A stretch of DNA of 63,633 nt, counting the filler, from Schmidtea nova (taxonomy: Eukaryota): the NCBI GenBank assembly GCA_044892505.1. It is 4 parts of 2 records of this genome, joined end to end, with 100 filler letters (N's around TTAATTAATTAA, not from the genome) between each part and the next. Parts side by side here need not be neighbours in the genome. Positions count along the whole stretch, not along the records: positions 1 to 24,603 come from CM097883.1; 3 more parts are not named here. One strand, given 5' to 3'. Within the stretch, counting starts at the first letter, position 1. Each line of letters starts with the position of its first letter. The position numbers were made by a program, and so were the translations under genes. Positions 8,207 through 9,413 of this stretch are shown here, piece by piece. The notes beneath the pieces were generated by a model. It worked only from the letters and a program-made list of their open reading frames with translations, was not told the DNA's origin and searched no databases.

Positions 8207-9413
8207 TGGTAGCAGAGCGTGGTTCCCACCGGGGGGCCACGCACACTCTGGAAATCTTTTAGTATACATTTTTATTAAAGATTCTATTATGTTTTTTGTC
8301 AATTTTTATAAATGGGTTAAATTTGTAATTGGGGTATGGACCAACATTCCCTCCCAAGCGCGTTTTGAATGGGAAGTGAGGTTAGGGGATAAGAGGCGAA
8401 AGTGGAAGGTAATTAATGAAAGAGGAGTGAAAGTTGGAATGGCTTGGCCACCGGATATTGTGAAAGACGGCTGCTATGGGCCCCAGCATTCTTTTAAATT
8501 CCGGGATAACATTGGTAGGGAATGTGCTCTTAAGAGGTATCTGCATATGGTTGGACAAGCGAGACAGGAAAGGCAAATAATTTTAAAAGCTTTAACGGGA
8601 AAACCTATCACTTTAGAAGTCGCATGCAGCGATACAATTGAAGGCGTGAAAGCTAAAAATAAACAAATATCATTTAATGAATCAAATAGACAAAGAGGAA
8701 AAATGGTGTCATCTGCTTATGAAGCAACATGTATAGAAAAAGATAATTCGGTAGTTAAAGGTGTAAAGGTTAGTAGGTGCATTGGTTATGACAGCGAAGA
8801 ATTTTTAATGAATATCAGCCGGGAAATGTTGCAACAAGATAAAATTTTGAAAGGCTTAGAACCTTTTGTAGGAATAAGGGGAGATAAAGGTAATTATAAA
8901 AAGTTCTATAATCAAATTGTTAAAAATATTAAATTGAGTAATCATGAAGACAGGGTGAATATGAATAAAATAGGGGAATTATTGAGTTTTTATTCAATAG
9001 CAAGTGGTGATGAAAGGACGAGTTTAAAGGATAATAGTTCGCGAGTGAAAGAAAAGGAAACGGAGTCAACTTTACATTTTGTTTTGCGATTGAGACGTGG
9101 AATACAGATTTTTGTTAAGACTTTAACAGGTAAAACCGTAACGCTGGAAGTTGAATCGAGGGACACTATTGAGAAAGTAAAAGCAAAGATTCAAGACAAA
9201 GAAGGAATCCCATCTGATCAACAGAGATTGATATTTGCGGGTAAACAATTGGAAGATGGAAGAATCCTGTCAGATTACAACATTCAAAAGGAATCTACTC
9301 TTCATCTTGTTCTTCGTTTAAGAGGTGGTAATGATGAGGAGGAGGAATTAGAGGAAGGATTGAGAAAGAAGAGGAGTGTCAAATATAGATTGACGAAATT
9401 AAGAAACAAATAA
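7683..9413 (+). CDS. Retroelement ORF1, 576 aa: LTR-encoded unknown region + unknown region + split ubiquitin + Hsp90 fragment + full ubiquitin + short acidic/basic tail
   Basis: Open frame from an ATG inside the 5' LTR, through the PBS, to TAA at 9411-9413. Whether translation starts at this ATG is unproven. Confidence 0.7.
8207..8224 (+). promoter_or_regulatory. Primer-binding site complementary to the tRNA-iMet 3' end
   Basis: TGGTAGCAGAGCGTGGTT immediately follows the LTR CA. TGGTAGCAGAG is the complement of the metazoan initiator tRNA 3' end (CUCUGCUACCA). Confidence 0.88.
8571..8657 (+). other. Degenerate ubiquitin residues 1-29 within ORF1
   Basis: [29 protein letters not shown] versus ubiquitin [29 protein letters not shown]. 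Confidence 0.9.
8790..9056 (+). other. HSP90: Captured Hsp90 middle-domain fragment within ORF1
   Basis: [21 protein letters not shown]...[57 protein letters not shown] parallels Hsp90 [21 protein letters not shown]...[57 protein letters not shown]. Confidence 0.92.
9060..9329 (+). other. UB: Ubiquitin C-terminal piece ([13 protein letters not shown]) fused to one complete 76-aa ubiquitin unit (9102-9329)
   Basis: The complete unit differs from human ubiquitin at 7 positions (M1I, I13V, P19S, S20R, N25K, P38S, T55I). All seven lysines, the L8/I44/V70 patch and the LRLRGG end are retained. Confidence 0.97.

Follow-up and report, generated by a model that had tools for sequence, protein, structure and literature searches.

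A complete ubiquitin ending at the putative Gag start of a non-autonomous BEL/Pao-derived retrotransposon in Schmidtea nova, a likely spacer for host deubiquitinases

A 5.5-kb LTR retrotransposon of Schmidtea nova carries, within a single long reading frame, a complete ubiquitin that ends where the element's own Gag protein appears to begin. This ubiquitin, likely captured from the host, likely served as a spacer cut by deubiquitinases, freeing a Gag-derived protein from an in-frame leader that is a mosaic of likely host fragments, a reading to which we assign a probability of about 0.5. The element lies at 7123–12611 of a 63,633-nt stretch of assembly GCA_044892505.1, made up of four parts of two records with filler between them, of which positions 1–24,603 come from CM097883.1; the whole of this stretch, as distinct from the element itself, is referred to here as the window. 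All features of the element given below are on the plus strand.

The element is BEL/Pao-derived, multi-copy and non-autonomous. It is bounded by a direct repeat of 1,084 bp with TG...CA ends and three mismatches between its copies, forming the 5′ LTR (7123–8206) and the 3′ LTR (11528–12611). A primer-binding site starting with TGG, which we take to be of the initiator-Met tRNA type, follows directly after the 5′ LTR (8207–8219), and a polypurine tract of 15 purines (11513–11527) adjoins the 3′ LTR, all of these features being present as for the BEL/Pao lineage. BEL/Pao elements generate a five-base target-site duplication; both flanks of this element are microsatellite, (TA)n on the left and (CA)n(TA)n on the right, so a duplication cannot be read there. 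The coding remnants are closest to BEL/Pao Gag-Pol and stand in BEL/Pao order: collinear, in-frame scraps at 10755–11498 represent the pre-RT linker, RT start, Peptidase_A17 region and integrase core, with RT, the RNase H-region and integrase remaining as pieces of ~30–60 residues each, and the C-terminal region of the frame has a BEL/Pao polyprotein as its sole database match (one of 119 candidates). The element thus shares with BEL/Pao its TG...CA LTRs, primer site, polypurine tract, Gag N-terminal helices, and pol order of RT, Peptidase_A17 region and integrase, but differs in having no capsid (DUF1759 region), zinc knuckle, protease or RT catalytic motif. A motif search of its frame found no D[ST]G, YxDD or zinc-knuckle motif, and profiles of residues 200–600 of relatives had no match in the frame, leaving capsid and nucleocapsid without a counterpart there. 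Because neither enzymes nor capsid are intact, the element is non-autonomous. An Rfam search returned microsatellite noise alone.

Between the LTRs, partial host coding pieces on the sense strand sit in place of the internal ORF. They belong to a frame that opens within the 5′ LTR at 7644 and extends to 11525, a span of 1,294 codons. It is interrupted by a single stop, where composition predicts 111; the other two frames over the same stretch contain 135 and 157 stops. In order, this frame comprises an LTR-borne part, a stretch after the primer site, which it crosses in frame, ubiquitin residues 1–29, an HSP90 piece, a ubiquitin stub, the whole ubiquitin, the Gag start, an acidic and coiled-coil middle, and the pol scraps. 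The LTR-borne part (7644–8206) has its first in-frame ATG at 7683 and its upstream limit at the stop 7641–7643. From 7683 to 8204 (174 codons) it bears a weak likeness to the proteasome-assembly chaperones PAC1/PAC2 (Atlas 0.87–0.91, at low recognition), for which Pfam gave no match at E ≤ 10, and a single-sequence fold (pLDDT 34) was not usable; it is possibly another captured host gene. No usable Atlas match was found for 8205–8570, and a search of the leader as a whole (7683–8570) against 1.84 billion representatives gave one match, an unrelated bacterial repeat protein. Then follow the decayed ubiquitin residues 1–29 (8571–8657), 8/29 of them changed relative to human, and a fragment of the HSP90 middle domain (8790–9059; Pfam E 6.5e-18), which has an in-frame nine-residue deletion and, counted by eye on the alignment, 54/90 residues identical to human HSP90-alpha.

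The stop that bounds the LTR-borne part is present in both LTRs of this copy (7641–7643 and 12046–12048), which implies that the copy moved after gaining it. Its middle base, 7642, differs in essentially all sister depth in four of four runs, and the frame stays open for ~67 more codons upstream, so sister copies may start further 5′.

Two ubiquitin-derived units follow the HSP90 piece. The first (9063–9101) is a stub of residues 64–76 with the changes L69F and G75R, ending in LRLRRG (9084–9101; R75 codon 9096–9098); it is fused to the HSP90 fragment, and the Lys-Glu shared across their join is at most suggestive of microsimilarity at a switch point. The second (9102–9329) is a complete ubiquitin (Pfam E 2.7e-31), 69/76 identical to human, which ends in LRLRGG (9312–9329; GG codons 9324–9329) and is followed by 27 residues, Asn first (9330–9410), then by a stop (9411–9413) and an in-frame ATG at 9414. 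The initial annotation had described an LRLRRG junction, carrying G75R, upstream and LRLRGG with 27 residues downstream, and direct reading bears it out; it had also taken the upstream unit for a ubiquitin, of which the RG letters stand, the unit itself being residues 64–76 joined to HSP90. The ubiquitin pieces differ from one another mostly at synonymous sites (7/13 and 14/29 codons), as would be expected if the three came from different repeats of a polyubiquitin gene; the stub differs from the whole ubiquitin at seven synonymous and two non-synonymous codons among its 13. An ordinary host polyubiquitin gene was rejected as an explanation, since the unit is flanked by LTRs and continuous with pieces of HSP90 and Gag. 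An assembly artefact was likewise rejected, as a diverged 1,172-base contig (X3; 86% alike) spans HSP90, stub and ubiquitin gap-free over 8982–9259.

The whole ubiquitin is in frame, appears foldable and ends in GG. Its changes relative to human ubiquitin, some of which the host's own ubiquitin may natively share, number seven in 76 (M1I, I13V, P19S, S20R, N25K, P38S and T55I), and leave intact L8/I44/H68/V70, R42/R72/R74, all seven lysines and the terminal GG. Deubiquitinases are likely to cut just once, after G76, since fragments of ubiquitin escape their recognition and the upstream unit has only the 13 residues of a stub; in split-ubiquitin work, ubiquitin halves are neither recognised nor cut (PMC9703124). 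The earlier proposal that host deubiquitinases would cut once thus keeps its outcome and loses its reason, as G75R would not be what spares the upstream junction, and G75R as a designed switch was rejected for the same cause, a stub of 13 residues being unable to fold.

What gives the predicted cut its interest is the sequence on its far side. Among 120 fetched BEL/Pao proteins (P0004–P0123), all 47 polyproteins of at least 1,700 aa supplied their first 200 residues for a profile, which was searched against 852 six-frame chunks of the window with stops written as X. Its best match lies at 9327–9536 (E 0.0052), the next, unrelated match having E 1.8, and none of 2,000 shuffles of the Gag-start segment reached the real score. 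The same locus came first in 10/10 rebuilt profiles (using four N-terminal lengths and six half-sets drawn at random), with a domain E of 0.008–0.47, the half-sets being weaker (0.02–0.47). A conserved basic motif stands 15 residues past G76, compared with 13–65 residues past the Met in the 16/47 relatives that match the pattern, a pattern drawn up after the element had been examined. Pfam alone did not recognise the Gag start, and the Atlas returned no reading for the sequence following G76. On this modest E-value of 0.005, the 27-residue tail is read as the Gag N-terminus, the first part of BEL/Pao Gag N-terminal helices (9330–9590) that begin right after G76. As the profile match begins at G76, the ubiquitin sits about where Gag's start codon would be.

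This Gag region is broken in the present copy. The match crosses the stop at 9411–9413, with both sides contributing, collinear, and the 27-residue side contributing most, from which it follows that the stop interrupts a once-continuous Gag region. An intact downstream product is therefore absent here, the reading frame closing after 27 residues with no capsid or nucleocapsid match beyond, and the earlier statement that a large GG-ended protein and a tail would be released comes down, on the tail side, to those 27 residues. ORF2 (9414–11621; 735 aa) continues in the same frame with the remaining Gag start, ~380 codons of acidic and coiled-coil sequence (9600–10750) and the pol scraps, and stops within the 3′ LTR; none of 7,999 scored candidates (404–1,287 residues) was related to it as a whole. 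The ATG directly after the stop (9411–9416) could allow re-initiation. A 21-base pattern of the junction, searched against metagenomes, gave one match (L001), a chance occurrence in a bacterial intergenic stretch, and a comparison with other scanned genomes revealed no resembling stretch.

Fusions in which ubiquitin takes over the start of a protein and is cleaved off behind G76 are familiar from ubiquitin-L40, ubiquitin-S27a and polyubiquitin, and natural precursors of this kind are among the database matches of the whole ubiquitin. They begin at Met1 and are near-invariant host genes, whereas the unit in the element is internal, has lost Met1 and carries seven changes relative to human. A closer parallel is found in cytopathic pestiviruses (BVDV Osloss, CP1 and CP Rit), in which a captured ubiquitin lies inside the polyprotein, can be preceded by host fragments, withstands damage to its N-terminus and has the virus's own protein beginning directly after it (PMC8310069, PMC13517609). 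In BVDV CP Rit, cellular hydrolases cut an internal ubiquitin that lies behind other host sequence and is missing three N-terminal residues, which produces an authentic N-terminus (PMC8310069), and BVDV inserts are often mosaic (PMC13517609). Pestiviruses are RNA viruses in which the cleavage has been demonstrated experimentally and yields an intact enzyme, NS3 (PMC8310069, PMC13517609); the element, in contrast, is a retrotransposon known from sequence alone, and its product would be a Gag remnant that lacks capsid and, in this copy, is truncated. The analogy with pestiviruses drawn in the initial annotation was apt, and becomes more so with the predicted cut falling at the Gag start, since G76 adjoins the N-terminus of the element's own protein as it does in the pestivirus signal (E 0.005, with a stable rank).

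The capture of host mRNA by LTR elements, like the use of ubiquitin as a viral processing signal, is already known. In LTR-mediated retroposition (Tan et al. 2016), pieces of host mRNA are captured by template switching, and several genes may be joined in frame, as in a two-gene chimera in the Pao element BATUMI and in a mosquito BEL18_AG retrocopy (PMC5131818). Such retrocopies share with the present element the use of partial mRNAs of more than one gene, which replace the internal region in sense and in frame and leave the locus non-autonomous; the cases described are mostly young and low-copy, and the word ubiquitin does not occur in the main text of that paper (PMC5131818). The element differs from them in belonging to a diverse family, in a frame that starts in the LTR and crosses the primer site, and in a whole ubiquitin that ends at the Gag start. 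What appears to be new is this natural junction between ubiquitin and Gag in a retrotransposon, for which no case was found: the openly accessible literature on ubiquitin in LTR elements, covered as titles and openings of abstracts, contained none, and ubiquitin was present in 0 of the 120 fetched BEL/Pao proteins. In a review of giant transposons, the Burro elements of planarians are mentioned as having ubiquitination-related domains, as distinct from ubiquitin itself (PMC6431247).

Taken together, these observations fit a history in which polyubiquitin and HSP90 pieces would have entered by template switches to host mRNAs during reverse transcription, a known mechanism. Translation would begin in the 5′ LTR and continue across primer site and leader alike; one deubiquitinase cut after G76 would then leave all sequence upstream of it free to drift, provided that the frame stayed open. 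The arrangement would be a legacy of the family that is decaying in this lineage, which probably moved in trans. A spacer of this kind accounts for the exact junction, for an open frame with a drifting leader, and for the fact that the best-kept ubiquitin is the one that adjoins Gag. It does not account for the in-frame pol scraps or the missing capsid, which favour either a passenger ubiquitin or a disposal role for the freed piece.

The first of these is that abundant polyubiquitin and HSP90 mRNAs were caught by chance, the frame being held open for the sake of the RNA, for example by escape from nonsense-mediated decay, with the ubiquitin as the youngest capture and any cut incidental. It is a serious competitor, though we consider it less probable than the spacer. 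Multi-gene, in-frame chimeric retrocopies do arise without selection, Pao elements included (PMC5131818), and here the non-functional pol scraps are in frame up to the 3′ LTR, so that the keeping of the frame need not reflect a protein function. Among the titles listed, literature on nonsense-mediated decay and non-autonomous elements held nothing apparently specific. What capture by chance leaves unexplained is a junction that coincides both with G76, one of 76 in-frame positions, and with the start of Gag; a rough, post-hoc estimate, which ignores microhomology hot-spots, puts the odds of this double coincidence at ~5 in 10,000.

The degree to which the ubiquitin has been kept bears on the same question. 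That the ubiquitin adjoining Gag is the best-kept of the host pieces counts against an origin as a mere passenger, but seven changes in a protein that is normally near-invariant count for it. Changed residues make up 7/76 of the whole ubiquitin against 10/42 in the other ubiquitin pieces (p 0.03), a contrast that is no longer significant on matched residues (4/41 against 9/41, p 0.11); in the HSP90 piece they make up 36/90, and this contrast, otherwise significant, weakens to p 0.16 if the host HSP90 is assumed to be already 25% off the human protein. Seven random changes would spare 12 chosen contact residues 28% of the time (p 0.28) and the GG 82% of the time, placing the retention of contact residues within chance. 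The better preservation of the ubiquitin relative to its neighbours is thus suggestive, and a younger capture would explain it as well as conservation.

Sister copies provide a further view of the family. Contigs of four runs (three samples, one study, one organism label) were aligned to 7123–11527, giving 1,494–2,940 contigs per run on 4.4 kb, with 30/30 bins covered and likeness ranging from below 90% to above 99%; contigs of the family are 80–100% alike to this copy. Their number, coverage and spread indicate that the family is multi-copy and diverse. The listings that could be inspected covered 40 of 476 near-fixed differences and 32 of ~8,000 aligned pieces. Within the frame, indels and joints have a net length that is a multiple of three in 8/11 listed events with known fill and in 12/18 listed overall (p 0.004), a count that omits three joints involving a non-coding part of the LTR, the end of the stretch or no skipped letters. 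Among the 40 listed near-fixed differences, the 35 coding ones, stop excluded, comprise 8 synonymous and 27 non-synonymous changes, and the synonymous fraction fits neutrality (expected 0.24, p 0.63) for this copy against nearly all sister depth. Recent substitutions in the lineage of this copy are, on these figures, as neutrality predicts, a spectrum that again sits comfortably with chance capture.

At the stop 9411–9413, the middle base (9412) differs in essentially all sister depth and is the sole listed near-fixed base of the stop; in X2 and in X4, two contigs each have loose ends that lack a stop there, and part of the family may also stop at this position. No difference was recorded at the RG or GG codons among the 40 of 476 listed, which suggests that R75 is common to some sisters. 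None of the 32 listed pieces, of ~8,000, bridges 9329/9330 and so joins G76 to the Gag start. The run without listed near-fixed differences at 9021–9411 was rejected as a sign of constraint, there being a longer such gap at 7942–8697 and 40 of 476 differences listed. In four of four runs the ubiquitin bin has high contig depth, although such depth cannot rank parts of a gene.

Two further groups of contigs vary the arrangement. Low-depth contigs (pieces 3, 4, 21 and 29; 9330–9513), 82–86% alike, align only from 9330–9334 onwards, and their preceding 164–214 letters do not align to ubiquitin; they are possible relatives without a ubiquitin, or with a more diverged one. A low-depth contig found in three runs joins 8490 to 9162, connecting the leader to the whole ubiquitin and skipping the HSP90 block, which is a possible single-ubiquitin ancestral form.

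The residue exposed by the predicted cut raises a second alternative. Asparagine at an N-terminus is a destabilising residue and marks a protein as an N-degron, so the freed piece, which starts with Asn, would be such a substrate. The frame might accordingly be translated to protect the RNA, with the ubiquitin/Asn junction sending a defective Gag product to destruction and so sparing the particles of a helper. Asn directly after G76 and a downstream product without capsid or nucleocapsid matches are both in keeping with this, and ubiquitin fusions that expose a destabilising residue are known to govern a protein's half-life (PMC9703124). However, native Gag N-termini (P0045, P0049 and P0090) can also turn acidic one or two residues in, so no special reason for this is needed, and we regard such a disposal role as unlikely.

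The upstream product has also been given possible functions. The initial annotation suggested that a protein ending in a free GG would be activatable by E1; taken as a selected role, this would mean that the mosaic protein is charged and attached to host or particle proteins. The chemistry is real, as C-terminal ubiquitin fusions with a free GG can be E1-charged and conjugated (PMC9703124), and the GG, R72/R74, I44 patch and lysines are all intact. Selection for it has left no sign, the upstream part being a drifting mosaic: it is the most variable and decayed portion of the frame, where sister contigs skip 51–318 bases, it is without relatives among the 1.84 billion representatives beyond the single bacterial match, and the recent changes are neutral. 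A selected role as a conjugation handle is thus very improbable.

The other suggestion was that a deubiquitinase cut stands in for a lost retroviral aspartic protease. The frame does contain no protease motif, but with RT, the RNase H-region and integrase reduced to scraps of ~30–60 residues there are no intact enzymes that need release. A retroviral protease has no job upstream of Gag, which is where this single site lies, and here the cut would free 27 residues. Replacement of the protease is refuted for this copy by its anatomy, as far as this can be judged from the predicted products, and is given the lowest probability of all the readings weighed here.

The spacer reading can be extended from the copy to the family, to which we would hold tentatively, at rather worse than even odds. 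In this form, a stolen ubiquitin would be a host-cut insulator that replaced the Gag start codon in a successful family, such that captures are tolerated upstream, even within the LTR, if they are in frame; the element would continually reshuffle host exons, with deubiquitinases releasing the Gag N-terminus, and a broken ubiquitin could be renewed from polyubiquitin mRNA. If the ubiquitin is a spacer, a genomic parasite would have come convergently to exploit host deubiquitinases, and this would explain how host fragments build up upstream of Gag without loss of Gag. If instead the host pieces were caught by chance, the element would offer a clear case of a long open frame without protein constraint.

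Elsewhere in the window, several other mobile elements are apparent. A Tc1/mariner-type element (19416–20804) has a 360-codon open DDE_3 transposase frame (19515–20597) and arrays of 22-base repeats on both flanks, a Penelope-like RT and GIY-YIG fragment lies at 23178–24305, and a piggyBac-type fragment (DDE_Tnp_1_7) at 3972–4631. Fragments at 40346–41404, 50685–52162 and 60125–61267 are, judging by translation, presumably of hAT-type transposases. Likely host exons include one for a protein kinase on the minus strand (178–1035; Pfam E 3e-17) and, by translation, what we presume to be a T-type calcium channel, a proton-channel-like piece and dihydroorotate dehydrogenase among 37135–37989 (minus strand), 29707–30231 and 43468–43806 (both plus strand). 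Taken as a set, these exons suit an AT-rich invertebrate animal. Fold-back elements with inverted arms of 22-base and 16-base tandem units are located at 43924–45551 and 48725–49942.
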